This document shows positions 12,903 to 62,064 of a DNA stretch of 64,000 nucleotides, in pieces. Source of the DNA: Candidatus Poribacteria bacterium. Its GTDB lineage: Bacteria > Poribacteria > WGA-4E > WGA-3G. The stretch covers positions 544,001 through 608,000 of the forward strand of contig OZ219753.1 of NCBI GenBank assembly GCA_964291315.2, in the 5' to 3' direction. Every line of letters begins with the position of its first letter. Within the stretch, counting starts at the first letter, position 1. Under the pieces are notes generated by a model. It worked only from the letters and a program-made list of their open reading frames with translations. It ran no database searches and was not told where the DNA came from. The position numbers and the translations under genes were made by a program.

Positions 12903-14807
12903 CTAAGCCCGTTCTACCTCCGAACGTTTCTGGGCAATATAGACCGCTGCAACAAGCATTAGAGAAAGAACAAACGTCCAGATATTGTAGATATAGGCGA
13001 GAAACGCTGCAAGGGCAAGCATTACCCATTCATACCAATGCATCTTTCGGACGAAGTAACCCATTGTCACAATTGAAAAGATCGCCGTCCCCACAACCGC
13101 GCTTACCACAGACAGCATGTATTGCGTAAATGTGCCATCTGTAAATAGAATGTGTGTATATGCAAATAACAGCGGCATGATGTAAAGTAGTTTAGCGAAC
13201 TTAAAACATGCCCACCCTGTCTTCCACGGATCAGCACGCGCAATAGCAGCCCCCGCATAGGCGCTAAGAGCAACCGGAGGTGTTATGTTTGAATCTTGAC
13301 TCAACCAGAAGATAATCAGATGCGCGGCGATGACAGATATGCCCATCTCAGGTGTCGTTAAAATCGGTACTGCAAGCTCAGAGGTAATTAAGTACGCAGC
13401 CGTGACAGGGATACCCATACCTAGCACTAAGGAGGCACCGGCGAGAAATAGAATCGCGACGGTCTTATTGGTACCCGCAACACTTAACACTAGCTCGGGG
13501 AATATCCGGCCCAAGCCCGTTAAGTCAATAACTGCAACGATAATACCAATAGTGCCAACTGCACCGCCTATTGCCAGCGAATTCTTCGCCCCGCCTACCA
13601 TCGCTTCCCATATCCGCTTTGGCGTTAATCTTGTGTCTGGACGGATATAACTCACTGCAATCGTGACCAGAATCGCGAAAAAAGCTGCTTTGTAGGCAGT
13701 ATATCCGGCAATGAGCATCCCGATCAGAGTGAACAAAGGCAGTAAATAGAACCAATCCTGCTTAAGCAGTAGAAAAAATCTCGGTGTTTCTGTTTCAGGT
13801 ATGCGATCAAGTCCCTCTTTCTTCGCTTCAAAGTGAACCATCAACCAAACAGATAGAAAATAGAGGGCTGCTGGCACGATAGACAAGAGTGCAATTTGAC
13901 TGTATGGCAGCCCAGTTCGCTCCGCAATCAGAAACGCACCTGCCCCCATCACCGGCGGTAAAAACTGCCCGCCTACAGAAGCAGATGCCTCGATCGCACC
14001 AGCGACATGTGCGCGGAAACCTGTCCGTTTCATCAGCGGAATGGTGAACGTTCCCGTCGCAACAGTATTCGCAATCGCGCTCCCTGCAACCGAACCAAAA
14101 AAACCGGAGGTCATCACAGAAACCTTCGCAGCACCGCCTATGGAACGACCAGCGATGGACATCGGCAGGTTGATAAAGAACTGACCAACACCCGATTTTT
14201 CCAGAAATGCTCCGAAAAAAATAAAGAGAATCACGTATGTTGCCATTACGTTTGCCATGATGCCGAAAACACCGGCCTGATTGAAAAAGCAGTGCTCAAC
14301 AATACGGCGCACTGTAAAACCCTTGTGGGCAAATGCATCAGGCACGTACCTGCCGAAGAGGGCGTATAAGATACCTATCACAGCGATAATAGGTAATGCC
14401 CACCCTACGGTTCGACGACTCACCTCAAAACTTATCACGATCGCGACAGTCCCCACGAAAATATCGAGTCGGCTGTAATTACCAGCTCGGGTGGCAAGCT
14501 CTGGATACTCTACAATCCAATATCCGATGGTAAAAATGCTACAGATGATGAGCGTGAGATCTAACAAAGAAGGCCGAGCTGACGGCGAAACTTGCCGACA
14601 CACGTACAGCACCCCAATCAGCACGTGGGTAAGGAGCAGATAGACACCGATGTGATACTGTTCACTAGCACTTCCAAAACCTGCACTATAGAGGTAAAAA
14701 AGAACGAGGCAAGCTGCACCAACCTCAAATATCCATCTGTATACAGGTTTCAAGTCTGTTCGCTGCGTCTTGAGACCCGTAACCTCTCCTGTTTCTGATT
14801 GTCTCAT
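12903..14807 (-). CDS. TRAP transporter fused permease (4TM/12TM, TAXI-associated type)
   Basis: GSAIANTVATGTFTIPLMK, ASVGGQFLPPVMGAGAF, LGMGIP and ITPPVAL motifs; start set at MRQSETG. Confidence 0.9.
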   Translation of the reverse strand: MRQSETGEVTGLKTQRTDLKPVYRWIFEVGAACLVLFYLYSAGFGSASEQYHIGVYLLLTHVLIGVLYVCRQVSPSARPSLLDLTLIICSIFTIGYWIVEYPELATRAGNYSRLDIFVGTVAIVISFEVSRRTVGWALPIIAVIGILYALFGRYVPDAFAHKGFTVRRIVEHCFFNQAGVFGIMANVMATYVILFIFFGAFLEKSGVGQFFINLPMSIAGRSIGGAAKVSVMTSGFFGSVAGSAIANTVATGTFTIPLMKRTGFRAHVAGAIEASASVGGQFLPPVMGAGAFLIAERTGLPYSQIALLSIVPAALYFLSVWLMVHFEAKKEGLDRIPETETPRFFLLLKQDWFYLLPLFTLIGMLIAGYTAYKAAFFAILVTIAVSYIRPDTRLTPKRIWEAMVGGAKNSLAIGGAVGTIGIIVAVIDLTGLGRIFPELVLSVAGTNKTVAILFLAGASLVLGMGIPVTAAYLITSELAVPILTTPEMGISVIAAHLIIFWLSQDSNITPPVALSAYAGAAIARADPWKTGWACFKFAKLLYIMPLLFAYTHILFTDGTFTQYMLSVVSAVVGTAIFSIVTMGYFVRKMHWYEWVMLALAAFLAYIYNIWTFVLSLMLVAAVYIAQKRSEVERA

Positions 14808-15008
14808 TCTGCCCCCAACATAATCGCTTTTTCTGATATGCAAAAACATTTGCCTATTTTGCAGAAATATGATACAATATACATAAGAGAACTCCACTTG
14901 GAGAAAATATAATAAAATTATTATACCAAAGCGGTTCTCTTTAGACAAAGAAAACAGTCAGATATTTATCAAACTCATATTAATTTGAAAAAAAAAAATT
15001 AAAAAAAC

Positions 15009-15038
15009 TTGACAAATTAAATGGGTTTGTGGTATCAT
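15009..15038 (+). promoter_or_regulatory. sigma70-type promoter with A-tract UP element
   Basis: TTGACA-18 nt-TATCAT with TG extension, preceded by A tracts at 14988-15007. Confidence 0.55.
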
Positions 15039-15202
15039 TAACTATGTGTTAGCTGGAAAAGCAGGTAAAATGTAAATAACCTGCTTAAAGATGAGAAATA
15101 TAATGGACAACACGGTTATGACCGGAAGTCCACTTTAGTAGATTCCCACCCCTACTTCGGTGAAGGTAGATGGGGAAAAACGCAACAGAGGAGTACTTTC
15201 CA

Positions 15203-15841
15203 ATGAAAACGTATGTGACGATCCCGAAACTCGTCATCGCAGTGCTCGCTATTGTCGCCTGCAGCTTCACGCCGCACGCTTGGAGTAAGGCACAAACTAG
15301 CTTTAATAGTCCCTCGGCTACGCTGCAAGTAGAAGCAGACCGGCAATTTATCACAGAACCCGAGGCGAAACCGACAGCACCCGGCAGATTGGCGAAACCT
15401 CACGGGACAGTGGGCTTACAATTTATCACAGAGCCCGAGGCGAAACCCGCGGAACCAGGCGAGCTGGAGCCTGCCCTTGTGCGTGCCAGACAACAAGAGC
15501 TAGCAGATCGCCTGCTTTTGCTATCTGAAAAGCAGCTGGCGGTTCCGAAGCAGTCGGCATTGCTGACAAACTATCCGAACCCGTTCAACCCCGAGACCTG
15601 GATCCCGTACGATCTTGCAGATGCTGCTGAAGTCAAAGTGTCCATTTATGCGGCAGATGGCAGCTTAGTTCGGACGCTCTCCTTAGGGCACCAAGTAGCA
15701 GGTGTCTACCAGAGCAAGTCTCGTGCAGCGTATTGGGACGGGCGCAACGACGCGGGTGAGTCTGTTGCAAGTGGACTCTATTTCTATACGCTTGAAGCAG
15801 GTTCCTTCGCTGCAACCCGTAAAATGTTGATAATGAAGTAG
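15203..15841 (+). CDS. small secreted protein: signal peptide, short repeat linker and T9SS type A-like/FlgD-Ig C-terminal domain
   Basis: GAGGAG RBS; signal peptide; LLTNYPNPFNPETWIPY…WDGRN…SGLYFY…TRKMLIMK C-terminus; QFITEPEAKP duplicated. Confidence 0.8.
   Translation: MKTYVTIPKLVIAVLAIVACSFTPHAWSKAQTSFNSPSATLQVEADRQFITEPEAKPTAPGRLAKPHGTVGLQFITEPEAKPAEPGELEPALVRARQQELADRLLLLSEKQLAVPKQSALLTNYPNPFNPETWIPYDLADAAEVKVSIYAADGSLVRTLSLGHQVAGVYQSKSRAAYWDGRNDAGESVASGLYFYTLEAGSFAATRKMLIMK
15344..15447 (+). repeat. intragenic 29-bp direct repeat
   Basis: caatttatcacaga(a/g)cccgaggcgaaacc at 15344-15372 and 15419-15447. Confidence 0.85.
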
Positions 15842-15936
15842 TTAAGAATAACGTGAGTTTAATTATAGGGAGGCTCTTTGTTGGTTAGCGAGAGCTTTTG
15901 CAGAGTCGAATGGATTATACTGCAAGCGTTGCAGAG

Positions 15937-15963
15937 GCACAGATGGACAGTCTATGCTACAAG
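15937..15963 (+). repeat. REP-like palindromic element (GTAG family)
   Basis: gcacagatggacagtctatgctacaag matches the reverse complement of 26934-26960 at 24 of 27 positions. Confidence 0.6.
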
Positions 15964-16052
15964 TCCCTTGCAGATGCACCTTGCAGGTTATGGGACAAAA
16001 GAGTCTCCCTATATGTTTTTTCAAAGTCATGTTAGGCCTAAGGAGGCATAAA

Positions 16053-19000
16053 ATGCGAAGAACATTAGTGGTTCTCTCTGTGCTTGCCGCGTTTATGTTT
16101 GCGAGCGTCCCGTTCGCAGCGGCAGAATGGCAAGAGAACCTGGTAACCAATAACACGCTCAAAGCGCTCTATGTGATCAAGAGCACTTGGCGGGCAGCGG
16201 ATGATAACAAAGGTATCCCCGCAGGGTTCTTGACCCGCGGCTCATACCGCATCCTGCCCGGGAAGTCCAAGTTGTTCTATTCCTGGGACACCAACAGCAT
16301 CTATTTCCGTATTTCAAACGCAGAGCATGCGATAAAAGCGAACAGCGGCACGACGGCTTTTGCGTTCTGGGCTCATCCGAATCGCGCCTTCCGCGTTGTC
16401 TCACAGACGCTCGATACCTCTGTGACAACGGGTCAGCTGCTTTACTCTGATCGTTCGCCGGATCAGTTGGCTCAATTGGAGGGATTTGTCAGCTATACGG
16501 GTGGCTCCGAAGTGGTTGTCACTCCGGAGTGGGTGTTGCTAGATGGGCAGCCGACTGCTCCGCCAAATGACGAGCTCGGAGACGATGGCGGGTCGCCCGT
16601 TGAAGATGTTGCTCCGCCTGCGTGGGTAGAGAACATCGTAAGAAATGAGCGGGAAGAAGAGATATATGTTGTCTTTGCCACCTGGAAGGTTGAGAAGCCG
16701 AGGAAGGGGTGGCCTGAAGGGTTTCGGACGCGTGGCAGCTATCGTATCCCTCCGGGTAAAGGTAGAGTGTTTCATTCGTGGGAGGATAACGAGTCTTTTT
16801 TCCACATATCAAACGCGGATGGTGCGTTAAAACCGGAGAGCAGCAGTGGCACCTTCGAGTTCTGGGTTCATCCGAATAAGAAGTTTCGTATTGTGTCGGG
16901 TCAGTTCGAGAATGGTGTAACGCAGGAGGAGCTGCTGTATTCGGATCGTGCGAAGGAGGAGTTAGAGCACTCGGACGGCTTTATGTTATACGAGACCGGG
17001 GATAGTGGTGCTGAAGTGGTCGTTACTTCTGACTGGGTGTCGGTGTCTACTCTCCCACCTCCTCCGCCTCCTCCCGCTCCCGCCGTTCCTGAAGGTATGG
17101 TCTTGATCCCCGCTGGCACCTTCCAGATGGGTGCGCCCGGTACTTTTGAAAGCCCTGTTCATTCTGTTACTTTAGATGCGTTTTATATGGATACGCATGA
17201 AGTGACGAACACGGAATACGCTGCGTTCCTCAATGCAAAGGGCAAACATACCGATGGAAATAATACCTGGATCCGTCTTAGCGGTTCCAATAATAGTGTG
17301 AAGATTAGGTTATCCAATGGTAGATATACGCCGGTAGCGGCCTATGCAAATCATCCAGTTGCTCATGTGAGTTGGTATGGTGCGATGGCGTATGCGGAGT
17401 GGGCAGGTAAGCGGCTGCCGACGGGGGCAGAGTGGGAGTATGCTGCACGCGGCGGCTTAGTCGGTCAGACATACCCCTGGGGCAACGACGGCAATAATTC
17501 CCAGAATCGTGCCAACATGCGCTTCGGGTTTAAGTATGACTCCATGCCAGTCGGCAGTTATGCAGCCAACGGCTACGGATTGTATGATATGGCAGGGAAT
17601 CATCAGGAGCTGTGTTTAGACACCTACACCGCCTATTCGAGCGGGGCAAAGACGAACCCTGTGAGAGGTGCGACCAGTATCCAAGCACTATTGGCTAGCT
17701 ATAAAACGGCTAAAGGTGCTCGCGAGGTTCGTGGGGGGCACTGGGATTCCAGTCTTCCGGGCATTAAGGTTCATTATCGCCAGGGCATCAAGATCGGCGG
17801 TGATAACTCCGTCACCGGTTTCCGTTGTGTGAAGCCTGTATCTAGCCCCTCTACGAACAGTAACGATAACGATGCTGTCGAGACAACCCCGACACCTGTC
17901 GAGACAACCCCGACACCTGTTGTAACACCTGTCGAGACACCTGCAGGCATGGTCTTGATTCCCGCTGGCACCTTCCAGATGGGCGGGTCCGGTTTTGAAT
18001 CTCCCGTTCATTCTGTTACTTTAAATGCGTTTTATATGGATGCACATGAAGTGACAAACACGGAATACGCTGCGTTCCTCAATGCAAAGAGGAAACATGC
18101 CGATGCAGGGAAGACCTGGATCTATCTCAGTGGTAACAATAATAGGGTGAAGATTAGGTTATCAAGCGGTACGTATACAGTGAAAGCGGGTTATGGAAAT
18201 CACCCCGTTGCTCATGTGAGTTGGTATGGTGCGATGGCGTATGCGGAATGGGCAGGCAAGCGGCTGCCGACGGGGGCAGAGTGGGAGTATGCTGCACGCG
18301 GCGGCTTAGCCGGACAGACATACCCCTGGGGCAACGACGGAAATAGTCTCGGGAATCGTGCCAACATGCGCTTCGGGTTTAAGTGGGATTCCATGCCAGT
18401 CGGCAGTTATACGGGCAACGGCTACGGGTTGTATGATATGGCAGGGAATCATCAGGAGTTGTGTTTAGACACCTACACCGCCTATTCAAGTGGTGCCAAG
18501 ACGAATCCCCTGAGGGATGCTAACAGTAGTATCCAAGCGCTATTGGCTAACTATTTAGCGGCTACAGGTACCCGTGAGGTTCGTGGGGGTCACTATGATT
18601 CCAGTGGTGGAGACATTGCGGTTTATGCTCGCCGGGGCATCATGATCGGAGGTTCTAACTCCGTGACCGGTTTCCGTTGTGTTATACCTATCGCCCCTGC
18701 TAACAATAACAACAATGATGGGGAGTCCCAGGCCCAGGCACCTGTTCAGACACCTGTCAAGGTGCCTGTCAAGAAAACCCCGACACCTGTTGTAACACCT
18801 GTTGTGACACCCACGCTACCGCCGGGCATGGCGCTGATCCCCGCTGGCACGTTTAAGATGGGCAGCACCACGGGCGATGCGGATGAACGCCCTGTTCACA
18901 CTGTCACTTTAGATGCGTTTTATATGGATACACATGAAGTGACGAACACACAGTTCGCGGCATTCCTTACTGCAAAGGGCAAACACATCGACGCAGGGAA

Positions 19001-19565
19001 GACCTGGCTCGATATGTCAGATCCCGCCATAGGCATTGGGCTGGTAGCAGGGCAGGAAACCCCAACCTATCAAGCCAAGTCCGGTCATGGGAACCGGCCT
19101 GTCATTAGAGTCACTTGGCATGGTGCGAGAGCGTATGCGAAGTGGGCAGGCAAAGAGCTCCCCACGGAAGCACAATGGGAGTATGCTGCGCGCGGTGGGT
19201 TAGTTGGGAAACTATACCCCGGCGGCGACACCATAGACGCTACGAAGGCAAACTATGGTCAGAACGTAGGTAGCACGACGGACGTTGGCAGTTATGCGGC
19301 GAATGGTTATGGTCTCTATGACATGGCTGGGAATGTCTGGGAGTGGTGTCTGGATACGTATGACGATGTGTTCTATCAGAGTTCTCCTACCGCGAACCCG
19401 ATGTCAGGCGATCCAGACACAATGATGGATGATGTCCGTGTCCTGCGCGGCGGCTCGTATCTCTATTCAGCCCAGACGACTCGTGTCGCAAATCGCGACC
19501 GTGGCGCACCGGTGAGTACGGGCAGAGACCTCGGTTTCCGTTGTGTGAAGCCTGTATCTCCGTAA
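16053..19565 (+). CDS. secreted protein with two N-terminal repeat domains and three non-catalytic FGE-sulfatase (SUMF1/C-lectin fold) domains
   Basis: AGGAGG RBS at 16041, signal peptide; three GMxLIPAGTF…LPTxAxWEYAARGG…NGYGLYDMAGN…RGG…GFRCV units separated by Pro/Thr linkers; no FGE catalytic cysteine pair after RGG. Confidence 0.85.
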   Translation: MRRTLVVLSVLAAFMFASVPFAAAEWQENLVTNNTLKALYVIKSTWRAADDNKGIPAGFLTRGSYRILPGKSKLFYSWDTNSIYFRISNAEHAIKANSGTTAFAFWAHPNRAFRVVSQTLDTSVTTGQLLYSDRSPDQLAQLEGFVSYTGGSEVVVTPEWVLLDGQPTAPPNDELGDDGGSPVEDVAPPAWVENIVRNEREEEIYVVFATWKVEKPRKGWPEGFRTRGSYRIPPGKGRVFHSWEDNESFFHISNADGALKPESSSGTFEFWVHPNKKFRIVSGQFENGVTQEELLYSDRAKEELEHSDGFMLYETGDSGAEVVVTSDWVSVSTLPPPPPPPAPAVPEGMVLIPAGTFQMGAPGTFESPVHSVTLDAFYMDTHEVTNTEYAAFLNAKGKHTDGNNTWIRLSGSNNSVKIRLSNGRYTPVAAYANHPVAHVSWYGAMAYAEWAGKRLPTGAEWEYAARGGLVGQTYPWGNDGNNSQNRANMRFGFKYDSMPVGSYAANGYGLYDMAGNHQELCLDTYTAYSSGAKTNPVRGATSIQALLASYKTAKGAREVRGGHWDSSLPGIKVHYRQGIKIGGDNSVTGFRCVKPVSSPSTNSNDNDAVETTPTPVETTPTPVVTPVETPAGMVLIPAGTFQMGGSGFESPVHSVTLNAFYMDAHEVTNTEYAAFLNAKRKHADAGKTWIYLSGNNNRVKIRLSSGTYTVKAGYGNHPVAHVSWYGAMAYAEWAGKRLPTGAEWEYAARGGLAGQTYPWGNDGNSLGNRANMRFGFKWDSMPVGSYTGNGYGLYDMAGNHQELCLDTYTAYSSGAKTNPLRDANSSIQALLANYLAATGTREVRGGHYDSSGGDIAVYARRGIMIGGSNSVTGFRCVIPIAPANNNNNDGESQAQAPVQTPVKVPVKKTPTPVVTPVVTPTLPPGMALIPAGTFKMGSTTGDADERPVHTVTLDAFYMDTHEVTNTQFAAFLTAKGKHIDAGKTWLDMSDPAIGIGLVAGQETPTYQAKSGHGNRPVIRVTWHGARAYAKWAGKELPTEAQWEYAARGGLVGKLYPGGDTIDATKANYGQNVGSTTDVGSYAANGYGLYDMAGNVWEWCLDTYDDVFYQSSPTANPMSGDPDTMMDDVRVLRGGSYLYSAQTTRVANRDRGAPVSTGRDLGFRCVKPVSP

Positions 19566-19628
19566 CGTTTTATGCCCTAACGCCTTTTATCATCAGGTAA
19601 ATCGCTAAAGGCATTGAAATACAAAAAC

Positions 19629-19684
19629 GGGCGTGATAGCCAGTAGGACCTCCTGCACAGCTATCACGCCCATTTTCTATTTTT
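19629..19684 (+). terminator. intrinsic terminator
   Basis: gggcgtgatagc/gctatcacgccc 12-bp stem followed by T-rich tail, preceded by an A tract. Confidence 0.75.
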
Positions 19685-20018
19685 GAGCCATCCAAGTTTT
19701 GAAGTCAACGCCCGGATAGGCAGCATAGTTCACCCAACCGATTGCCTTTTCTCAACCCTATACCTCCTTAAAAAACAGAGTAGGGCGGACGAAAAAATAG
19801 TTTAGGCGCACCTACCGGAGACGAAAATCGTGAAAATAGGACATTATAACAGTTCATGTAAACATAAACCCCCAATTTTCGTTTGTAGTTTAAGAATGAA
19901 TAAAAAAAGTGAGTCTCATAAGCAAACCACTGTTTTCTTTCTCTAAAGAACCTCCTTTTATTGCGATACAACCTTCATATCACAAAAATGCAGTAAACAG
20001 AGAAAACCGAGAATATAG

Positions 20019-23000
20019 GTGCAGATACATCCTTTGTTAAAATTCGTAGACCCGCCCATCTTAAAAGAGCAAACGCTACTGTTAAAAATTGGAATCATCT
20101 TTACCCTGGTAATTTGCGCAACTTTTGACGTTGCAGTGAACCGGATCACTGCAGAAGAGACTGCCCTAACAGAAGAAACACAAACAGAGACTACAAAATC
20201 AAGCGAACACACCGCTATCCCTGCTGATTCCGATAAACCCGAGACATCTGAGGAAAATCAGCGTTCTATCCCACCCGGACTGTCTAATCTCAATCCATTT
20301 AACGGTTGGAGCAAGTCAAAACACTTCATCTGGCAAAGCGGTAGCCAGCAGGCAGCAGGCAGCAATCAGCAAGAGGGGTGGGGCATAGATACACCACAAG
20401 AACAGACCGCACGCTCTACTGAAGACCAACAGCCGATAAATGATAGCGATCGACTCATACAACCCTATTTGGACAGCCTCCGACGATGGCGAAACCCGCT
20501 ATACCTAACCGACTTCAGCGAACTCTACAATTGGAAACCCAAGCCTAAGCAAGCAGAGGAGGGCATCGCTCTCCCAATGGATTCTAACCTCAAGATCACT
20601 GGCGTACAATCCGTAACCATAGAAGCAAACAAAACTCACTACTTCGGTGAGGGAGACCTGAACCGCTACGGGTATGGCGGCGGATACGGAAGCTACTCAT
20701 CCGGACTTGATCTAGGACTCACATCCTCCTACGGTTATGAGGACTTCGGATACAGCAGCAGCGGATTTGGCGGTGGATATGGATCAGGTGTTGGAAGCAG
20801 CTATGGCAGCTATGGCAGTGGATACAGCTCAGGATTTGGCGGCGGCTACGGCACCAGTGGCACGCCCCGAGCAACAGGCTTTAACCTGCGACAGATACAG
20901 CAATTCGGACTGCACGGACGCGTCGGGCAACGAACTCATATCTCCGTAGATTATAGCGCAGGCGGAAGCAGCTTTGGCAGCGGCGGATATGGCGGCGGAT
21001 ACGGCTTAGGTGGAACAAAAGAGCAGAAAATTAAAATCTGGTATGAAGGCACACCCGAAAGCATCATAAAAACTGTCTCATTTGGGGACATCACCCTCAG
21101 CCTGCCGAACACCCGTTTTTTGAACGTCAACCGGAATTTATTCGGGCTTGAGGGGGTTTTTGAATGGAAAAATACACGACTTACAGCTTTCGGTTCTCGC
21201 AGTAAGGGTATACGAGAGGTCCGAACCTTCCGCGGACAATCGCAACGAGCAGGCGGCAGATACGGATACGGACCACGCGGCATCCAGATCCAAGATACCA
21301 ACTATGTAAAGAGCAGATTCTATCACATACACAAAGATGAAGATGGCGAACTACATGAAGCATACCTCCCTATAAAAGCAGGAAGCGAAGAAATCTATAT
21401 CGACGACGGTGTCGTCGGAAACAACCAAGGCGGGAAACGGACAAGCCGGGGCTATTTCAACCCGCAGTTCCCCGGACAAGACTACAATATAGACCACGAA
21501 ACGGGCGAAATAGAATTTCTTACACCCATCTCGGCAAGCTACACTATTGTCGTAGCATACGAATACAACGGGAGCGGTGGCGGCAAAGTCGGCAACCCCG
21601 GCAACGTCTTCATCGACGAAAACGAAGACGGCACCATTGATGAACAAGGAGAAGAAATCGGTTACGTAGTCCTAAAAGAAAAAGGGTTTCGAGGGACTGA
21701 AGCGACACACGTTTATTGGCTCGGCAACCGAAATATTAATCCGCGCGACTTTACCCTCACAATCGTACGCCAAGGACAAGATGAGACATCCCCAACCAGC
21801 AGCGGCGCAGCACCCTACATCGAGATATTCGGCCTCGACCGAAACGGAGACGGGAATGTCGATGCCCAATTTATAGACTACGACAGAGGTTTCCTCCGAT
21901 TCCCAACAACCTACGGCATACATCCTTTTCAAATCACAGATCCAAACCACCCCTTTTATGCCTACCGGGAGGCAGTTAATAACAACGCCCTCTATCTTGA
22001 AGGCAGCCGAGCAGATGCGCAAATCTATACCATCATTGCAGACTACGCGTATCAATCAGAAACCTACAATGTAGGGATATTCGTCATACCAGAAAGTGAA
22101 ACTGTCCGCCTCAATGGACAAACCCTGATACGCGACACCGACTACATGATGGTTTATGAGGTTGGTACCCTCCGCTTCTTCAGACAGCTCGACGAGTTTG
22201 ACGAGATCGTCGTCGAATTTGAAAAGACACCCTTCGGAGGCTCAGCGCAACAGGCTATAGCCGGGGTTTGGCTAGAATACACACACAAACCGAAACCTAA
22301 ATCGGAAAGAGAACAGAGTCTCGAAGATAGGTTTAACCGACTAGGCGGCAGCCAAATCATGGACCACAGCCTCGGAGCGAGAACACAAGATGCTTTCGGA
22401 GAAGCCTTTTCAGGTAACAGAATCGGAACTTTGGGAGGGAGCAGCCTCGGCGGAGGTTTCGGACAGAGCGGCTTCGGCAGTGGATATAGCAGCTTCGGCG
22501 GCATTGGCGGCAGATCCCGAAACTACTACGGCAGCTACGGCGGGCAGATGGACCATTTCAACCCTGTTTTCAAAAAAGGATTCACACTATCAACAGGTTA
22601 TATTCTCAACACCGGGCAAAAACCCGCAGAAATACCGGATGCAAACGAGGTACCAAACCGGTTGCAAGCCTTCAATCTAAACACAAGCTTCGGCAGAGAA
22701 TTCAATATCGCCGGCGTTTTTAACCTGCTCCCTTTTGTTAAAATGCGGAACTTTCCGCTTTCACTCAATTTCAGCGGTGAAACAGCCTATTCACACAATA
22801 ATCCTAATAGTATTGGTGTCGCACTCATTGATAGTATGGAGGGCGCTAAGGAAACAACAACCATAACCACACTCAAATACAACTGGAAACACAGCAGCCT
22901 ACCTTACATCGCCCAAAATCAAACTAACTCCACAGAGCCGTCAACTTACCAGGTTATACCAACTAATGAGAACAGAGCCGTTTTTAGGATTGCCCTGAAA

Positions 23001-26000
23001 AATAAGAATGAAGCCGAAGCTGTCGGAAACTATATGCGAAACCGAGACGTACCTGCCTCTTCAATCCAACCGCTCTCTCTCTCTACCGAAGAACGTCTCA
23101 TCATGGAACTAGGCTACAGTTTCACAGACATCGCCGCAGAATGGGGCGGCTTTTCAAACGGGATCTCAGCATCAGGCGTAGACTACTCAGAACGCAGTTC
23201 CGTTGAGATGTGGCTACGCGTCCAAGGAGACGATAACATCACACTCCACTTGAACCTCGGCGCAGTGAATGAAGATACCGACCAAGACAAGCGATTGGAC
23301 AGCGAAGACCTACCCGATACACTGATGGACACAAACGGTGATGGAAGTGTCGATGCACTAGATTTAAACCTCGAAAACCTTTCAGATGCCGACCGTTATC
23401 GCGGGAACGGCACCTTGGATACAAGCGAAGACATCGGATGGAATTACAACGGACCCCTTGGCGAAATACCCATCGGCACAAATAACCAGGTATTGGACAG
23501 CGAAGACCTCAACGGGGACGGCGTACTCGACAACGTAGATGCATACTTCGAAATCTCAATGCCACTCAATGAAATTCCGAAAGAGTGGATCAAAAGTAAA
23601 AACGCGAATGACTGGATCTTTCTTAGTATTCCACTCTCACAATTTAGACCTGTCGGCTCGCGGTTGCCGAGTCTTGTGTTTGTGCAACACTTCCGATTCT
23701 GGCTGAGCAAAAATGCACCAGGAAGAGTGCAAGGCACTCTGCAGTGGGCTTCTATCGAAATTGTCGGAAACAAGTGGCAACAAGGAATAATAACCCGATC
23801 CAGCTCGCAAATCAACCCCGAGGTCGACCCCACTCTTAGCGACACCGCCCTTACACCCTCAACCGAAACGTTGTCAACAAGCACAATTGTCGAGAATACA
23901 CTCGAAAAGTTCATCGTCGGTACAAAAGATAACTTCAGCTATGACGACTATCAGAGCGCCTATCTTGACATCGAAGATAACGAACTCTTTAAAAAACTGC
24001 ACCCGTTCACAGCGACATCCCTTGGTTTCCAAACACAACAGCAACGGGAACAGACACTCAGCCTCGAATATTACCTTTTCCCAGAATCTTACGGAGTCAC
24101 CTCCAAACAATTGAAAGGTCTAACCCAAAGTGAAGGGCAAGACTTCAGCAAACATGATACCCTCCGTTTTTGGCTCTATGGTGATAATAGCGATACCACC
24201 TTCGTCTTGCAGCTTGCACCAACCGTCCCGACTAGCTATCGAAGCGCTTTTTATAGCTCAGACCCATTTATCGATCAGACACAAGAAGACGAAGTGAATG
24301 TTTTCGAAAACCTAACTGACTACTATGAATATACAGTGCCAATCGATTTCGACGGCTGGAAATTGATCGAAATCGATCTGCGCGACTTGCATAGAAACGC
24401 CTATCCAGATATCGCAGCAGGCAGCAACCATCAACAACCTGCCGGGAGTAGCGGAGAACAGCAACCACTGAACGTAACTGAAAACCAACAACCAACAACT
24501 GAATCACAAACTGCACTAGATGCACCAGACGGGCAGCCTGACGGTTTCACAATCCGCGGTAACAACAGCACAAGACTCTCCATTAAAAATATTGGCGGCA
24601 TCCTATTGGGCATCCGCAACAACACCAACCGTGAAATTAGCGGCGAAATCTGGGTCAACGAGATACACCTCGGCGACCCACTCGTCCGAGCCGGATGGGC
24701 GCGCCGCAGCAACATGTCAGTCGGACTCAGTAATATCATTAAGCTGAGGGGCGGATACGCCAGCCAAGACAAAGACTTCGAAAGCAGCGCAGGACAAGTC
24801 GGTAGACAACGACTCTCCTCGCGCGGATACAGTACCACGAATAACGACTTCAACATCGACGCCGATGTTACGCTCTTCCCATGGCTACCCATCCGATACG
24901 GCATCCGACAACAAGACACCGAAACTGAAAGCCAACGAGGTAGTTATAGCAGCTTCCAGAGCGGGAAAAGCGAAATACAGACACGAGATTTTTCTATCCA
25001 ACTTAACAGAAACCCCTTCCCCAACCTCGGATTTGCCTATAATTACCAAGACTTTTGGAACGAACAGCAGGGAACACAAATCAGCTATCTCTATACAGGA
25101 ACCTTCCGTTACGACCTCGGCTCAAAACTCGGGGTTAACGCACAATATCGACACGAGGATATACTCGCTAAACCCGAAACCGCAACACAGACATCAACAA
25201 CTTCAACCTCCTATTCCTATTATAGCTACGGTTACGGCAGAAATCGCGACGAAAAAACCGACAGCGCTACAATAGCACTAAATATCAGCCCCACAAACAT
25301 CTTCAGCCTAAACCCAACTTACGACATCAGCCGGACCCTTGAAAGACGAGAAGACCGCAATTACACTAGCAATATAGAAACAGAACCTGAAACGCCCGAA
25401 ACTCAAAAAGAGGAAACGAATAACTTTTCAATCACGCAACGCGAACATCGCTTAGCACTTACACCCCGACTCAATCGCGATTTGCTCGGCATGCGCCCTA
25501 CTGTCACTAGCCGAATGAGCTTTCGCGAAAATTGGTTCAGCCAGGAAAAAAGCGCTTCACTCAACGGAAACGTCAGTATTGGAATGAACCTACGCATCGA
25601 AAAATGGTTTGGATGGCTTCTCAGAAACGGAACAAACGAAATAAACGAAACACCGGAAAACAGCCCACAATCTGCAACCAGCCACCAACAGCCACCAGAG
25701 GACGCTGGAGCTAAAAGCACCACATCTGCCACAGATGAGATGCCGACACTCCACAACGAACAATCAACAACGCTCAGGGAACACCTACGAGAAAGCGGGA
25801 TCGATGAAACACAAATCCAAGAACTCGAAGAAAACCTCGGCGATTGGATCGAACGCGACAAGAATGAGGCACCCCCCGCAGAGGCAATCTCAAACCGAGT
25901 ATCAGAAACAACAGATGGGATGCTGAACCGAATCCTAAAAAGTTTCACCGTAAGCACAAACGCCAACTTTACCGCATCCGAATCTTATCGGCAACTCGCG

Positions 26001-26747
26001 GGTAACCAGTCAATCATAGAAATCTATTCGCTCGCTGAGGATGCTAAAGAACGCACAAACTCGCAGCGGAGTAACCGTTACACAATGCGAACCTCGGTAG
26101 AACCGTGGAAATGGGTATCCCTCGGTGCAAACGTCAACACCACTGATAGCTTCCGAAAAAGCACTGGAACCATTTATACATCGCATGCCGAATCATACGA
26201 AGGCAACCTAAAACTAAGCGCCCAAGAAACTACTAGTTTTCAAATACGTTACAGCTTCACAAAGCGAGATAATACAACACAGAAAGCGACTCTCAGCGAC
26301 AGCACCGCCCACACACCATCGCTCAGCTGGATACATACTTGGGGAAAAGAGACACGGACAGCACTCGGGATACGAACTACCTTCCAAGATCAACAGCGAA
26401 GTGGCATTCAAAGCAACGCTTTCATTGTCACCCCAAACCTGAGCGTTGACTACCGTTACCACACAGAAAATGGCATACGCCTCCCCTTTATCGGTAGAAT
26501 TCCACTCAAACACGACCTAGAATTAACCAACACGCTCTCCTGGGCCATTCGGAGGGAGCAATTCGGCGCAAATCGCGAAGAACGCTCAGAACGATATGAA
26601 ACAACCCTACGAGTCGGATACAAAATTAGTACACATATCACCGCAAACTTCCACCTCGGTGTCAGCTACAATAACGATAGGGTCGAAGAAGGTAGAGACT
26701 TCCTCTCAATCGCAAGTGCATTGACGATCCGCGGGGAAATTCAATGA
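20019..26747 (+). CDS. sprA: SprA/Sov-like type IX secretion outer-membrane translocon homolog
   Basis: 2242 aa; colinear SprA-like blocks KIWYEG…IIKTVSFGDITLSL…LFG, IPESETVRLNG…DY…G, LNLGAVNED, SEDLNGDGVLD…YFE, EIWVNE…GWA; amphipathic beta-strand C-terminal third. Confidence 0.7.
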   Translation: MQIHPLLKFVDPPILKEQTLLLKIGIIFTLVICATFDVAVNRITAEETALTEETQTETTKSSEHTAIPADSDKPETSEENQRSIPPGLSNLNPFNGWSKSKHFIWQSGSQQAAGSNQQEGWGIDTPQEQTARSTEDQQPINDSDRLIQPYLDSLRRWRNPLYLTDFSELYNWKPKPKQAEEGIALPMDSNLKITGVQSVTIEANKTHYFGEGDLNRYGYGGGYGSYSSGLDLGLTSSYGYEDFGYSSSGFGGGYGSGVGSSYGSYGSGYSSGFGGGYGTSGTPRATGFNLRQIQQFGLHGRVGQRTHISVDYSAGGSSFGSGGYGGGYGLGGTKEQKIKIWYEGTPESIIKTVSFGDITLSLPNTRFLNVNRNLFGLEGVFEWKNTRLTAFGSRSKGIREVRTFRGQSQRAGGRYGYGPRGIQIQDTNYVKSRFYHIHKDEDGELHEAYLPIKAGSEEIYIDDGVVGNNQGGKRTSRGYFNPQFPGQDYNIDHETGEIEFLTPISASYTIVVAYEYNGSGGGKVGNPGNVFIDENEDGTIDEQGEEIGYVVLKEKGFRGTEATHVYWLGNRNINPRDFTLTIVRQGQDETSPTSSGAAPYIEIFGLDRNGDGNVDAQFIDYDRGFLRFPTTYGIHPFQITDPNHPFYAYREAVNNNALYLEGSRADAQIYTIIADYAYQSETYNVGIFVIPESETVRLNGQTLIRDTDYMMVYEVGTLRFFRQLDEFDEIVVEFEKTPFGGSAQQAIAGVWLEYTHKPKPKSEREQSLEDRFNRLGGSQIMDHSLGARTQDAFGEAFSGNRIGTLGGSSLGGGFGQSGFGSGYSSFGGIGGRSRNYYGSYGGQMDHFNPVFKKGFTLSTGYILNTGQKPAEIPDANEVPNRLQAFNLNTSFGREFNIAGVFNLLPFVKMRNFPLSLNFSGETAYSHNNPNSIGVALIDSMEGAKETTTITTLKYNWKHSSLPYIAQNQTNSTEPSTYQVIPTNENRAVFRIALKNKNEAEAVGNYMRNRDVPASSIQPLSLSTEERLIMELGYSFTDIAAEWGGFSNGISASGVDYSERSSVEMWLRVQGDDNITLHLNLGAVNEDTDQDKRLDSEDLPDTLMDTNGDGSVDALDLNLENLSDADRYRGNGTLDTSEDIGWNYNGPLGEIPIGTNNQVLDSEDLNGDGVLDNVDAYFEISMPLNEIPKEWIKSKNANDWIFLSIPLSQFRPVGSRLPSLVFVQHFRFWLSKNAPGRVQGTLQWASIEIVGNKWQQGIITRSSSQINPEVDPTLSDTALTPSTETLSTSTIVENTLEKFIVGTKDNFSYDDYQSAYLDIEDNELFKKLHPFTATSLGFQTQQQREQTLSLEYYLFPESYGVTSKQLKGLTQSEGQDFSKHDTLRFWLYGDNSDTTFVLQLAPTVPTSYRSAFYSSDPFIDQTQEDEVNVFENLTDYYEYTVPIDFDGWKLIEIDLRDLHRNAYPDIAAGSNHQQPAGSSGEQQPLNVTENQQPTTESQTALDAPDGQPDGFTIRGNNSTRLSIKNIGGILLGIRNNTNREISGEIWVNEIHLGDPLVRAGWARRSNMSVGLSNIIKLRGGYASQDKDFESSAGQVGRQRLSSRGYSTTNNDFNIDADVTLFPWLPIRYGIRQQDTETESQRGSYSSFQSGKSEIQTRDFSIQLNRNPFPNLGFAYNYQDFWNEQQGTQISYLYTGTFRYDLGSKLGVNAQYRHEDILAKPETATQTSTTSTSYSYYSYGYGRNRDEKTDSATIALNISPTNIFSLNPTYDISRTLERREDRNYTSNIETEPETPETQKEETNNFSITQREHRLALTPRLNRDLLGMRPTVTSRMSFRENWFSQEKSASLNGNVSIGMNLRIEKWFGWLLRNGTNEINETPENSPQSATSHQQPPEDAGAKSTTSATDEMPTLHNEQSTTLREHLRESGIDETQIQELEENLGDWIERDKNEAPPAEAISNRVSETTDGMLNRILKSFTVSTNANFTASESYRQLAGNQSIIEIYSLAEDAKERTNSQRSNRYTMRTSVEPWKWVSLGANVNTTDSFRKSTGTIYTSHAESYEGNLKLSAQETTSFQIRYSFTKRDNTTQKATLSDSTAHTPSLSWIHTWGKETRTALGIRTTFQDQQRSGIQSNAFIVTPNLSVDYRYHTENGIRLPFIGRIPLKHDLELTNTLSWAIRREQFGANREERSERYETTLRVGYKISTHITANFHLGVSYNNDRVEEGRDFLSIASALTIRGEIQ

Positions 26748-26867
26748 TGAATGCTTGTCGGAATATGCATCATATAGAAACCTGCAAGCCACCGTTCCTA
26801 ATAGAATTAAGTGGAGGCAGGAAAGAATGAGGAATAAGGGCATCCGCGATTTTTAGCGAAAAAAGAT

Positions 26868-26896
26868 TTGACATGATTCGCGGTTTAAGATATAAT
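26868..26896 (+). promoter_or_regulatory. perfect-consensus sigma70 promoter
   Basis: TTGACA-17 nt-TATAAT. Confidence 0.8.
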
Positions 26897-26935
26897 TTGG
26901 GCTTAAAAAGATTTAGCGGAGCTATGCCACACACT

Positions 26936-26964
26936 TGTAGCATAGACTGTCAGACTGTGCTACA
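26936..26964. repeat. REP-like palindrome (GTAG family)
   Basis: tgtagcatag-actgtcaga-ctgtgctaca imperfect inverted repeat. Confidence 0.65.
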
Positions 26965-27143
26965 CCCTTGCAGTATAACCTACTCTTACAGCAGAGACTG
27001 TTGGTCTAAGGATGCTGCATCTGCGTGGAAAAGTCTCTGTGAGTGGTAACCTCACAACGCGTTGGGGAGAGCTGGAATCGTCTGACATATCGGAGACACA
27101 ACGGTTAAACACAGATAAGATACATCTGAAACCGACTAACCGA

Positions 27144-27184
27144 ACGTTGGGGGTGGAACGCCTGTTTCACCCCCAACGTCTTTT
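27144..27184 (+). terminator. intrinsic terminator
   Basis: acgttgggggtggaac-gcct-gtttcacccccaacgt 16-bp stem followed by ctttt. Confidence 0.8.
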
Positions 27185-27214
27185 AACCGCAGCCGCTATT
27201 GTGTTAGAAGACCT

Positions 27215-27288
27215 GAAGAGGCACAGATTGACAGTTTATGATACAAGTGCTGAAGAGGCATAGGAAACTAACAGAATGTGCTACAAAT
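27215..27288 (+). repeat. two tandem degenerate REP-like copies
   Basis: gaagaggcacagattgacagtttatgatacaagt and gaagaggcataggaaactaacagaatgtgctacaaat. Confidence 0.55.
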
Positions 27289-27308
27289 GCCTTTTGCGAT
27301 TAAGGATA

Positions 27309-28514
27309 TCACGTTCGATAGTCTGCGTTGATTCGGATATAATCGTAGGAGTAATCGCATGTCCAGACTTTTATTGCGGTGTCGCCGGCGCGGAGATCAA
27401 TGGTAATTCGCACGGGATCTTGTGCAAGCAGGGCGGTGGCTTTGTCCTCATCGTATCCGGAACCCATACCGTTTTTGACGAGTTGATAATTCGCGATCCA
27501 GACATCTACTTGGCGGGGATCGAATTCTGCTCTGGATTTACCGATTGCCATCATGATGCGTCCCCAATTGGCATCGTTAGCAAAGATGGCGGTTTTGACA
27601 AGTGGAGATTCAGCAACAGCGCGTGCGGCTTTTTCAGCGTCTGTTCGGTTTTTAGCGTTTGTAACAACCACTTCGACAAGTTTGGTCGCGCCTTCGCCGT
27701 CGCGAGCGAGCATCTTTACTAGTGCGGTGCAGATGAACTGAAGCCCTTCACAAAAGGTTTCGTAATTTTCGCCGGTTGCCTCAACAATAGGGACATTGTC
27801 AGCACATCCGGTTGCGAGGATAATCACGGTGTCATTTGTGCTGGCATCGGTGTCGATCGTTAGCAGATTGTATGTATTGTCTACGACGCTATTTAGAGCG
27901 GTTTGGAGCGTTGGAGCGTCAATGCGCGCGTCTGTTGTTAGGTAGGAAAGCATGGTCGCCATGTTTGGGGCAATCATACCGGACCCCTTGGCGATCCCAC
28001 CGATCTTGACAGGAACTCCGTCAATTTGGACCTCCACAGCGCTCGTCTTTGGGTGTGTATCGGTGGTCATAATTGCCTCGGCAGCATCGTTTCCGCCTTC
28101 GGGGTTGAGCATATTGACTGCGGTTTGGATACCGGTTTCGATGTTTTCCATGGGCAGCTGTTGTCCAATAACTCCGGTAGAGGAGACGAGGACGAGATTT
28201 GCCTCTATACCGAGCTGCTCGGCTGTTGCGGCTGCCATTCGTCGCGCGTTCGCCATACCGGTGTCGCCGGTACAGGCATTGGCGTTCCCGCTGTTAATAA
28301 TAACGGCTTGCGCGCATCCGTCGCTGAGATGTTCTCTGCATACCACAACTGGTGCAGCGATGATGCTATTTTTTGTGAAGACTCCGGCGGCAGTCGCGGG
28401 TGTATCGGTAACAATGAGTGCCATATCTTTTGTATCTACGGCTTTAATACCGGCGTGTACCCCTGATGCAGAGACACCCTGAACAGCCGTAATCCCACCA
28501 TCTATCTGTTTCAT
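27309..28514 (-). CDS. argJ: bifunctional glutamate N-acetyltransferase/ornithine acetyltransferase
   Basis: NSGNANACTG, SSTGVIG, IMTTDT, KGSGMIAPNMATML, RDGEGATK, SPLVKTA, NWGR, INADYRT. Confidence 0.97.
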   Translation of the reverse strand: MKQIDGGITAVQGVSASGVHAGIKAVDTKDMALIVTDTPATAAGVFTKNSIIAAPVVVCREHLSDGCAQAVIINSGNANACTGDTGMANARRMAAATAEQLGIEANLVLVSSTGVIGQQLPMENIETGIQTAVNMLNPEGGNDAAEAIMTTDTHPKTSAVEVQIDGVPVKIGGIAKGSGMIAPNMATMLSYLTTDARIDAPTLQTALNSVVDNTYNLLTIDTDASTNDTVIILATGCADNVPIVEATGENYETFCEGLQFICTALVKMLARDGEGATKLVEVVVTNAKNRTDAEKAARAVAESPLVKTAIFANDANWGRIMMAIGKSRAEFDPRQVDVWIANYQLVKNGMGSGYDEDKATALLAQDPVRITIDLRAGDTAIKVWTCDYSYDYIRINADYRT

Positions 28515-28933: not shown

Positions 28934-29668
28934 TTGAGTGACGTTCCGCAAACACATCCGCGATACCATTCATTGATATTACGAGACAGGATTGTTGCAG
29001 GGGTAGCCCAAGGAATAACTTCTGTTCATGGGCTGATCGCGCACGGTCGCGGAGAGGCCTTTGATTACCTCATCGGGGAGACGACACGCCCGTTCGCGCT
29101 TGAGGCGATCCACGCGGCGGGTGCGAGGCTTCGGCTGGCAGAACATCCTGTTATTTCGGTCAACGGAAATGTGGCAGCATTGGTTCCTGAAGTGCTCGTT
29201 GAGCTTGGTCAAATCCTGAACGCGCCGTTGGAGGTGAATATCTTCCACACGGAAACAGGACGAGAACAAAGAATCCGAGAGCATCTGCTCAACCATGGTG
29301 CCCTAGACGTTCTTATGCCAACAACGGAAGCACAGCTCTCCTTTATCGATTCACATCGAAAGTTTGTGCATCCAGACGGGATTTTTAAAGCGGATGTTAT
29401 CTTTGTCCCGCTTGAGGATGGGGATCGCTGCGAAGCACTTCGAAAAATGGGTAGGGCGGTGGTGACTGTTGATCTGAACCCGATGTCGCGGACGGCACAA
29501 CGCGCGAGCATCACAATCGTGGACAATGTGGTGCGAGCATTGCCGTTGTTATGTGAAGATATTCTGGGGCTCAGCGATTGTACAGCGCGAGCCGTCCTGA
29601 AAAAATATAGTAACGAGTCGGTGTTGGGAGAAGCCTTAGGACATATCAGCAGGGGCGGGAATGGCTAA
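28934..29668 (+). CDS. archaeal-type 4-phosphopantoate--beta-alanine ligase (phosphopantothenate synthetase)
   Basis: HPRYxSL, GLIAHGRGEAFDYLIGE, SVNGN, EVNIF, VPLEDGDR and DLNPMSRTA motifs of the archaeal PPS family. Confidence 0.9.
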   Translation: MSDVPQTHPRYHSLILRDRIVAGVAQGITSVHGLIAHGRGEAFDYLIGETTRPFALEAIHAAGARLRLAEHPVISVNGNVAALVPEVLVELGQILNAPLEVNIFHTETGREQRIREHLLNHGALDVLMPTTEAQLSFIDSHRKFVHPDGIFKADVIFVPLEDGDRCEALRKMGRAVVTVDLNPMSRTAQRASITIVDNVVRALPLLCEDILGLSDCTARAVLKKYSNESVLGEALGHISRGGNG

Positions 29669-32987: not shown

Positions 32988-33025
32988 AATGCGTAGTGAC
33001 TCTATATTCAAAAAAAGGGTTGTAC

Positions 33026-33608
33026 ATGAAAATCAAATTAAAAAATGCTGATATTCAGGAATATGTGAATGCCCCTATGTCTGATTTTCCAAAGTACACG
33101 ACTCAATTAATGAATGTCGCAAATCAAAATTCTCAGGCGACGCGCCCGAGATATGTTGGCCAATTAAGCGAACTGATTCAGGAATTTCCAGGGAAAACTT
33201 TCGAAGAGTGGGTTACGTGGTATCAAGAACAATATCCTAATGCGATTGATGATGCCACAGATAGAATAACCTCAATGATAGAAAACTTCAATGAGGCTAT
33301 CGGCAAAATTGACCGAACCTTGATTAAATCATGGGTAGAGGATTTGGTTCTTGTTAAGACATTCACTGGGCTTAAATTTCAGGAGTCAATTTTAAAAAAG
33401 CTGTCAGAAATAAAAGGGCTCTTATCGTTTGGCAGAACCTCATGAAGAATCCCAAGGCATAGATGGGTTCGGGGGCGAAGAAGCGTATTCTATCAAGCCT
33501 AGTACTTATGATTCAATGTCAACTGTAGCAGAATCTATAGAGGTTAAGACGATTTTTTTTTACGAAAAAAAGCCAGATAGCATAGTGTTTGAAATACCGG
33601 AAGAGTAG
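33026..33608 (+). pseudogene. MjaI-family restriction endonuclease, frameshifted near 33419
   Basis: FPKYTTQLMN…ANQNSQATRP…VGQLSELIQEF; a shifted frame continues SYRLAEPHEESQGIDG…SIKP…EIPEE to TAG at 33608. Confidence 0.75.
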
Positions 33609-52147: not shown

Positions 52148-52210
52148 TGTTGTAATTCTACTAAAATACATTTCTCTTCTTCACCCTATAGTGCAAGGAT
52201 AAAACTAAAG

Positions 52211-62045: not shown

Positions 62046-62064
62046 GACAATTCTACCTCCAATT

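Follow-up and report, generated by a model that had tools for sequence, protein, structure and literature searches.

A divergent SprA/Sov homologue and candidate type IX-like export and sorting components in Candidatus Poribacteria

The window analysed here is a 64,000-nucleotide stretch (C4:544001-608000) of a Candidatus Poribacteria genome of 4.40 Mb, assembled in 4 contigs and 95.2% complete. On its + strand, between a DctM transporter gene and an opposite-strand ArgJ gene, lie three co-oriented open reading frames (ORFs) at 15170-15841 (223 aa), 15954-19565 (1203 aa) and 20019-26747 (2242 aa). A first-pass annotation made from the letters alone had described this trio, correctly as to number and orientation, and had interpreted it as one locus of a type IX secretion system (T9SS) comprising a protein with a T9SS-type C-terminal domain (CTD), a lectin-fold protein and a translocon resembling SprA. 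Our main subject is the third gene (20019..26747, + strand), which has a GTG start and encodes a predicted SprA/Sov-like giant outer-membrane beta-barrel protein with a hydrophobic signal-like N-terminus. We also describe T9SS-type proteins that are encoded elsewhere in the same genome.

The NCBIfam model for Sov/SprA, TIGR04189, matches the 2242-aa protein with an E-value of 1.8e-39 (134.9 bits); the match is split into four colinear parts, which cover model positions 126-238, 375-672, 723-814 and 1082-1503 of 2319. All four TIGR04189 stretches in the genome fall within this one ORF, so the SprA-like gene is single-copy. The decisive evidence for homology to SprA is a profile-profile comparison–hhalign aligned the poribacterial family with a canonical SprA alignment at a probability of 100% and an E-value of 1.9e-104 over 1296 columns (query 251-1786, template 225-1702). 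The template consisted of nine more distant homologues, and the six of these that were scanned score 487-783 bits against TIGR04189. The blocks colinear with SprA/Sov that had been noticed at first are borne out by both searches, and the profile similarity to canonical SprA, colinear across most of the length, places the protein in the SprA/Sov superfamily.

We folded the protein with AlphaFold in two overlapping parts, residues 1043-2242 and residues 130-1329, each from a 42-row alignment. In Foldseek searches of the PDB, the top four matches of the C-terminal half are the SprA chains 8gl8_A, 8gl6_A, 6h3i_A and 6h3j_A (E-values 4.5e-26 to 3.0e-19), followed by MtrB at 2.6e-7, and for the N-terminal half the four SprA chains alone reach E ≤ 1e-3 (9.3e-35 to 1.3e-23). 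Structural alignment with VIA-align to 8gl6_A gave Z = 16.8 for the N-terminal half (603 aligned, root-mean-square deviation [rmsd] 22.8, 20% identity) and Z = 14.4 for the C-terminal half (850 aligned, rmsd 13.7). By these alignments, residues 187-1255 (20577..23783, + strand) correspond to Flavobacterium johnsoniae SprA 133-1266, and residues 1043-2241 (23145..26741, + strand) to SprA 988-2401. DSSP counts about 27 long beta-strands in the C-terminal half (model residues 485-1197), which agrees with the strand-rich C-terminus seen in the first pass, and about 13 in the N-terminal half; these counts come from two half-models, which give neither barrel closure nor a total strand number. F. johnsoniae SprA has 36 barrel strands. 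The region at about residues 1249-1562 (23763..24704, + strand) is modelled as an inserted CBM11-like beta-sandwich (VIA-align to 6r3m_A, Z = 12.4, rmsd 3.0, 151 aligned; weak Pfam CBM_11 match, E = 0.0059), which is probably a cap or extracellular domain.

TIGR04189, hhalign, Foldseek and VIA-align agree: the 2242-aa protein is a true but very divergent SprA/Sov homologue, colinear end to end. Like SprA of F. johnsoniae and Sov of Porphyromonas gingivalis (PDB 6H3I, 6H3J, 8GL6, 8GL8) it is a giant outer-membrane protein of more than 2000 aa, but it differs from them in its low identity (13-20% in the structural alignments to F. johnsoniae SprA), in scoring below the TIGR04189 cut-off and in carrying low-complexity inserts. 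The poribacterial family has acidic or polar low-complexity segments and, at residues 206-295 (window about 20634-20903) and 792-850 (about 22392-22568), conserved Gly/Ser/Tyr-rich ones; all are disordered in the models. We know of no Gly/Ser/Tyr-rich segments of this kind in canonical SprA.

Related loci were collected by scanning one genome per species, which gave 268 relatives; the best 80 of these, with ±10 kb around the gene, are the basis of the neighbourhood counts below. All of the best 80 come from Poribacteria or unnamed metagenome-assembled genomes, at 52-80% identity, in keeping with the poribacterial host that had been guessed from the letters, and the NCBI taxonomy places Candidatus Poribacteria among the candidate phyla, outside the Fibrobacterota-Chlorobiota-Bacteroidota (FCB) group. 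A TIGR04189 match is present in 150 of the 151 sampled Poribacteria genomes, including all 131 of high quality, and in 22 of 22 genera. The SprA-like gene is a single-copy, phylum-wide core gene in Poribacteria. A homologue search returned at least 128 proteins, about 87 of them close (38-80% identity); the named ones are 'Candidatus Poribacteria bacterium' hypothetical proteins, and the more distant ones listed include Elusimicrobia proteins. With the C-terminal half as query, phmmer found 233 matches at E ≤ 1e-3 and 30 at E ≤ 1e-30 among 1.84 billion cluster representatives. Among the matches listed, the nearest non-poribacterial relatives are from Elusimicrobiota (P0092 and P0094, both 'hypothetical protein'; E = 3e-39, 21-26% identity). 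They too are non-FCB, but they are shorter, at about 1800 aa. On TIGR04189 the poribacterial members tested reach 144-157 bits and the Elusimicrobia members 142 and 191.5 bits, tiers that lie below the threshold and are distinct from canonical SprA. Some orthologues of the poribacterial protein carry an N-terminal LysM domain (P0083, P0084, P0086).

Outside the window, and overlooked in the first pass, the genome encodes PorV/PorQ-family and PorU-like proteins. Four members of the PorV/PorQ family NF033709 (cut-off 90) score 189.3, 210.3, 125.2 and 89.7 bits; two PorV-like members exceed the Pfam PorV cut-off of 27 (33.2 and 43.4 bits), and the PorV equivalog model NF033710 is below its cut-off (98.5 against 250). 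A profile built for one of the PorV-like proteins has F. johnsoniae PorV (6h3i_F, 1.5e-14) as its sole PDB match. Orthologues of that protein, 81-93% identical, occur in at least 120 clusters, and NCBI already names some of them 'PorV/PorQ family protein [Candidatus Poribacteria bacterium]'. NF033709 is exceeded in 61 of 61 sampled genomes of the phylum with 8-15 matches each, an expansion that sets the poribacterial family apart from P. gingivalis PorV. Poribacteria possess the PorV-type carrier barrel expected of a T9SS. A gene on the same strand overlaps the end of the PorV-like gene (C4:2068314-2069180, L097:10315-11181; DUF5683 26.1 bits against 26.7), and its product may be a PorV partner.

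PorU-like proteins are encoded by three ORFs (1750-2137 aa), which score 399.8, 381.2 and 331 bits against NF033707 (cut-off 420). Each ends in a CTD and also contains Propeptide_C25 and Peptidase_C25 domains, the latter at E-values of about 1e-86 to 1e-88. For the one on C1 (2100 aa), the sole one searched, the best PDB match is PorU (6za2_A, 6.6e-31), with gingipain R at about 2e-14, and the columns of the His/Cys dyad are kept ('AGHGG' and 'SCyng' aligned to the gingipain and PorU positions). By homology these C25 peptidases would be sortases that remove the CTD. All 41 phylum genomes sampled for it have PorU-like matches. One of the PorU-like genes is followed by a PorV-like gene, and in 35 of 40 genomes the orthologue of this PorV-like gene lies at most 5 kb downstream of a PorU-like match on the same strand; of the other five, one is a fragmented assembly and four belong to a single genus. 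The genes porU and porV are adjacent in P. gingivalis. The poribacterial arrangement of a C25 peptidase with a CTD beside a PorV-family barrel resembles the P. gingivalis PorU-PorV pair (6ZA2; PorV in 6H3I), although the C25 peptidases of Poribacteria have about double the length and number 1-3 copies per genome.

Candidate cargo is abundant. TIGR04183, the model for the type-A CTD that marks T9SS substrates, is exceeded by 35 ORFs in the genome, including 15203-15841 in the window, so the SprA-like gene does co-occur with numerous CTD-tagged proteins here, a check of the kind that the first-pass annotation had proposed. Of the 28 CTD ORFs above 300 aa, 20 were scanned for domain content. Among these are six leucine-rich repeat (LRR) proteins, WD40, cohesin/dockerin and Ig-like (Big_1) proteins, an S8 subtilase, a trypsin-like protease, GH67N, and LVIVD and LDL-receptor repeats; in four of them the CTD is the only recognisable domain. 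Matches to the PorZ model are to the CTD only.

The surroundings of the SprA-like gene are not conserved. When all flanking ORFs were clustered, the commonest neighbour cluster was present at no more than 29 of the 80 loci, and conserved neighbours were rejected as hidden machinery because those examined belong to housekeeping or otherwise unrelated families: GFO/IDH/MocA oxidoreductase, alcohol dehydrogenase, GH2, 2-hydroxyacid dehydrogenase, aminotransferase, Der/Era GTPases, Laminin_G_3, PD40 and SecDF. At 16 of the 80 loci the gene directly upstream, on either strand, encodes a Laminin_G_3 (ConA-like lectin) protein of about 280 aa. Homologues of DctM and ArgJ, which flank the trio in the window, are near the gene at 0 of the 80.

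We consider it probable (about 0.72) that the 2242-aa ORF encodes the poribacterial SprA/Sov orthologue within a reduced T9SS-type outer-membrane export and sorting module. This interpretation starts from the observed homology, co-occurrence and PorU-PorV pairing, from which we infer transport, CTD cleavage, surface attachment and an energy source; every function attributed to the module is a prediction from sequence. In F. johnsoniae, substrates bind the carrier PorV at its extracellular loops within the SprA pore, and release of the substrate-carrier complex is an energy-requiring step (PMC10994853). Given the homology, the same route would apply in Poribacteria. CTD proteins exported by Sec–the LRR, WD40, cohesin/dockerin and Ig-like proteins, the proteases and the 15203-15841 product–would be captured in the periplasm and would cross the SprA-like barrel bound to a PorV-like carrier. 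A PorU-like sortase would then receive the cargo, cut off its CTD, and release it or anchor it at the cell surface. Neither the GldLM/PorLM motor nor the GldKN/PorKN ring was found with the models used, so energy coupling would either differ from that of the Bacteroidota system or use proteins too divergent to recognise.

Several results weigh against this interpretation. The most important concern the motor and ring. The models for GldL (TIGR03513), GldM (TIGR03517) and GldN, searched without a positive control, have no match in the genome, and the same holds for PorP/SprF (TIGR03519), the sole accessory part searched and likewise without a positive control. Across the phylum, GldM and GldN are matched in 0 of 151 genomes (profile models, again with no positive control), and GldL in a single one, where the match has 22 bits and lies inside a 1155-aa ORF. 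In Bacteroidota the release step, which requires energy, depends on the motor (PMC10994853). On the SprA-like protein itself, the curated TIGR04189 cut-off (200 bits for the whole protein) is missed by the 2242-aa protein, by four other poribacterial members and in all 151 phylum genomes; Pfam SprA_N (PF14349) has no match in the 2242-aa protein at E ≤ 0.1, although many orthologues carry a precomputed PF14349 match; and SprA is not retrieved from the PDB sequences by HMMER, whether the query is the protein or a 14-member family profile. The models are of moderate confidence (pLDDT, the predicted local distance difference test, is 68.5 for the C-terminal half and 62.4 for the N-terminal half) and superpose on SprA with a large rmsd of 13-28 Å, because each half was folded without the other. 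MtrB, a generic barrel, matches the barrel part equally well (Z = 15.7 with 471 aligned, versus 14.4 for SprA). Finally, no RNA sequencing run was listed that contains the SprA-like gene; four DNA runs, all from a single study, contain the stretch or part of it.

The failure to find a motor is informative nonetheless. Models of the same provenance detect SprA, PorV and PorU here at E-values of 1e-18 to 1e-119, and at the level of sequence models we regard the contrast between these outer-membrane parts and GldL, GldM and GldN as meaningful, the latter three being described as 'not found' and not as 'absent'. No full-length GldK was found either: all 48 matches to the GldK model in the genome cover only positions ~202-407, the generic core of the FGE domain. 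The genome-wide check for PorV, PorU and GldKLMN that had been proposed returned PorV-family barrels and candidate PorU-like peptidases and, with no positive control, was negative for GldL, GldM, GldN and full-length GldK. Compared with the F. johnsoniae and P. gingivalis systems, the poribacterial SprA-like protein co-occurs in the same way with PorV, PorU-like peptidases and type-A CTD cargo, but has a non-FCB host, and GldKLMN and PorP were not found apart from the 22-bit GldL match. We entertain, more tentatively than the export and sorting module itself, the idea that Poribacteria, and perhaps Elusimicrobiota, use a motor-less or differently powered type IX-like pathway for which SprA, PorV and PorU types suffice.

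The alternative that survives best, though we think it unlikely, is a complete conventional T9SS whose PorK/L/M/N (GldK/L/M/N) equivalents are too divergent for NCBIfam models trained on Bacteroidota. The searches for GldL, GldM and GldN had no positive control, the poribacterial SprA, PorV and PorU score below or near their equivalog cut-offs so that smaller and faster-evolving motor proteins could escape detection, and the Bacteroidota release step requires the motor (PMC10994853). This explanation has to contend with the recovery of SprA, PorV and PorU by comparable models while GldM and GldN are matched in no genome, with the confinement of the GldK-model matches to the generic core, and with the lack of any motor-like conserved neighbour of the SprA-like gene. 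Also on its side is an unassigned stator-like module, a weak ZorA/ZorB-like pair (40 and 53.7 bits) at C4:2196745-2205439 including flanks (module C4:2201363-2205439), flanked by ORFs of 1093, 378 and 320 aa without a Pfam or PADLOC family. It is one of three MotA/ExbB-type loci in the genome, together with an ExbB-ExbD-ExbD cluster and a Zorya type II anti-phage system (C4:725744-729985; ZorA2 262, ZorB2 233.6 and ZorE2 134 bits by PADLOC). We considered these stators as alternative motors and rejected them; none adjoins a T9SS-like gene, and nothing therefore ties the stator loci to secretion.

It is improbable, in our estimation, that the SprA-like barrel serves some other transport process or an envelope scaffold while the CTD proteins leave by another route. 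Such a role would fit the failure to find a motor, the position of the gene among housekeeping genes and its unusual Gly/Ser/Tyr-rich and acidic low-complexity inserts. Against it, the gene co-occurs throughout the phylum with PorV-, PorU- and CTD-bearing proteins that are known only from T9SS, and the protein is colinear with SprA over its whole length, the cap-like insert included. Nor is stand-alone placement an argument against a T9SS role: sprA/sov stands alone in Bacteroidota too.

The claim that the three genes of the window form a dedicated secretion locus does not hold, and this requires a closer description of the two upstream genes. The first (15203..15841, + strand; the ORF opens at 15170) encodes a small protein in which a linker joins a signal-like segment to a type-A CTD. 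Its start at 15203 is the Met at residue 12 of the ORF, where three of six aligned paralogues (70-92% identity) also begin. The CTD, at about 15572-15832, scores 26.1 bits against TIGR04183 (cut-off 23) and matches FlgD_ig with E = 8.8e-11, so that the 'CTD protein' of the first pass stands. The product is likely to be a T9SS-type substrate and not part of the machinery. In its make-up it resembles PorA of P. gingivalis, which is described as a small protein with little beyond a CTD (PMC7712824, PMC12152298); it is unlike PorA in being encoded by a multi-copy gene that always lies ahead of an FGE-domain gene.

The second gene (15954..19565, + strand) encodes a secreted-type protein without a CTD, in which two N-terminal repeats of unassigned domain precede three FGE-sulfatase (SUMF1-like) domains (PF03781, E = 7.5e-175 in 3 stretches). 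It is not a classical lectin, as might be understood from the first-pass label 'lectin-fold protein', but the FGE domain has a C-type-lectin-like fold. A DUF1036 assignment of the N-terminal repeats was a weak lead (score 0.87) and was not accepted. We also rejected the protein as GldK/PorK: its 344 bits (cut-off 350) add up from six stretches across three generic FGE cores, each FGE domain matches only the C-terminal part of the GldK model TIGR03525, and its signal-like segment contains no Cys by eye and hence lacks the lipoprotein signal of GldK.

These two genes belong to a dispersed cassette. By tblastn there are about eight copies in the genome of a small CTD gene followed by a gene for N-terminal repeats and FGE domains, among about 45 FGE loci. 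The small CTD protein has about 205-236 aa, and its partner, which itself lacks a CTD, has 1-3 FGE-sulfatase domains. The seven further copies, whose small CTD genes are 62-90% identical, are at C4:2226990-2229563, C4:970327-972923, C4:2043594-2046140 (- strand), C4:492582-494704, C3:33434-35556 (- strand), C3:223438-226074 and C1:509720-512848; in the last, the small CTD gene is a CTD-only fragment. The small CTD protein might be a carrier or anchor for its FGE partner.

We regard it as very improbable that the CTD, FGE and SprA-like genes constitute one dedicated secretion operon. They are adjacent and co-oriented, a single promoter-like site (15009-15038) lies upstream of the first gene, and the top NCBIfam match of the FGE protein is GldK/PorK; but that score, as said, is a sum over generic cores, and the CTD-FGE pair recurs around the genome without SprA. 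The order small-CTD gene, FGE gene, SprA-like gene is found at 0 of the 80 related loci, and both neighbours together at 0 of 80. Within ±10 kb of the SprA-like gene there is a CTD match at 6 of the 80 loci and an FGE match at 4, all of the latter on the opposite strand; at L047 and L053 a same-strand CTD match lies about 4 kb upstream, in L047 inside a 2046-aa ORF. In the window, the 453-nt spacer before the SprA-like gene contains a hairpin resembling an intrinsic terminator (19629-19671), followed by a U-rich tract (whole element 19629..19684, + strand), some 60 nt past the stop codon of the FGE gene. The hairpin folds at -30.9 kcal/mol (z = -6.76) and none of 200 shuffled sequences was equally stable, although a consensus scan did not list it. 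In transcription and in synteny alike, the SprA-like gene is independent of the two genes upstream, and the cassette adjoins it here by chance.

The rest of the window adds no component. In a Pfam scan of its 37 ORFs, those other than the trio were housekeeping, restriction-modification or otherwise unrelated genes, so at most three genes could have formed a unit, and none was a porK, porL, porM, porN or porV gene, the same outcome as in the first pass; an Rfam scan of 14800-27400 gave no match at E ≤ 0.1. The restriction-modification genes are an N6_N4 methylase with a MjaI-like endonuclease (31857-33445), a lone methylase (44126-45421), a Type ISP enzyme (47614-50709) and a BglII-like endonuclease with a methylase (61482-63051). 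A pair of DUF6785+DUF6784 paralogues lies at 29661-31586 and 56482-58389 (E = 1e-156 to 1e-162), the second after a run of transglutaminase-like, BatA-VWA and POTRA genes (50714-56481); DUF6785 genes are near the SprA-like gene at 7 of the 80 related loci.

Recent acquisition of the gene from Bacteroidota in the same sponge, although a shared habitat is plausible, is hardly credible for a gene found in nearly every genome and every genus sampled, with identities within the family falling from 80% to 38%, an identity of 13-20% to F. johnsoniae SprA, and a G+C content of 0.48-0.50 around the gene that is similar to the rest of the window.

The interpretation as a reduced T9SS-type export and sorting module bears on an older question. 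A single-cell genomics study by Kamke et al. in 2014 reported TIGR04183 on many poribacterial eukaryote-like proteins, did not find Por structural genes and stated that the export pathway 'remains to be revealed' (PMC3909097), which agrees with the first-pass remark that these proteins had no characterised export route. A 2024 mini-review restricts T9SS to the FCB superphylum (PMC11205867). In a 2026 preprint on a sponge proteome, a poribacterial 'cell-surface protein SprA' is named as one of the leading symbiont proteins but not analysed further (10.64898/2026.10.20.760564); from that entry, the SprA label is already in databases and the family is expressed. In literature searches on Poribacteria and T9SS, subscription journals not being covered, we found no description of a poribacterial SprA/PorV/PorU system. 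The first-pass proposal that this SprA could be the core of an undescribed T9SS variant is in part borne out by its co-occurrence with PorV- and PorU-like proteins and CTD cargo, while the labels 'SprA' and 'PorV/PorQ' were already known from database entries for some poribacterial proteins. What appears to be new, on the evidence of sequence, is an outer-membrane module of T9SS type that occurs outside the FCB group and apparently lacks motor and ring.

With SprA-, PorV- and PorU-type proteins in every sampled high-quality genome, the module is a concrete, testable candidate answer to the export question of 2014, and sponge symbionts may use it to display host-interaction proteins. That PorLM and PorKN are apparently lacking bears on whether the translocon can work without a motor, and on what a minimal or ancestral T9SS is. 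If the pathway is indeed motor-less or differently powered, the outer-membrane translocon and sorting module would be an older, separable unit to which Bacteroidota added a rotary motor, and its cargo would include the eukaryote-like LRR, WD40 and cohesin/dockerin repertoire that is thought to mediate life inside sponges.

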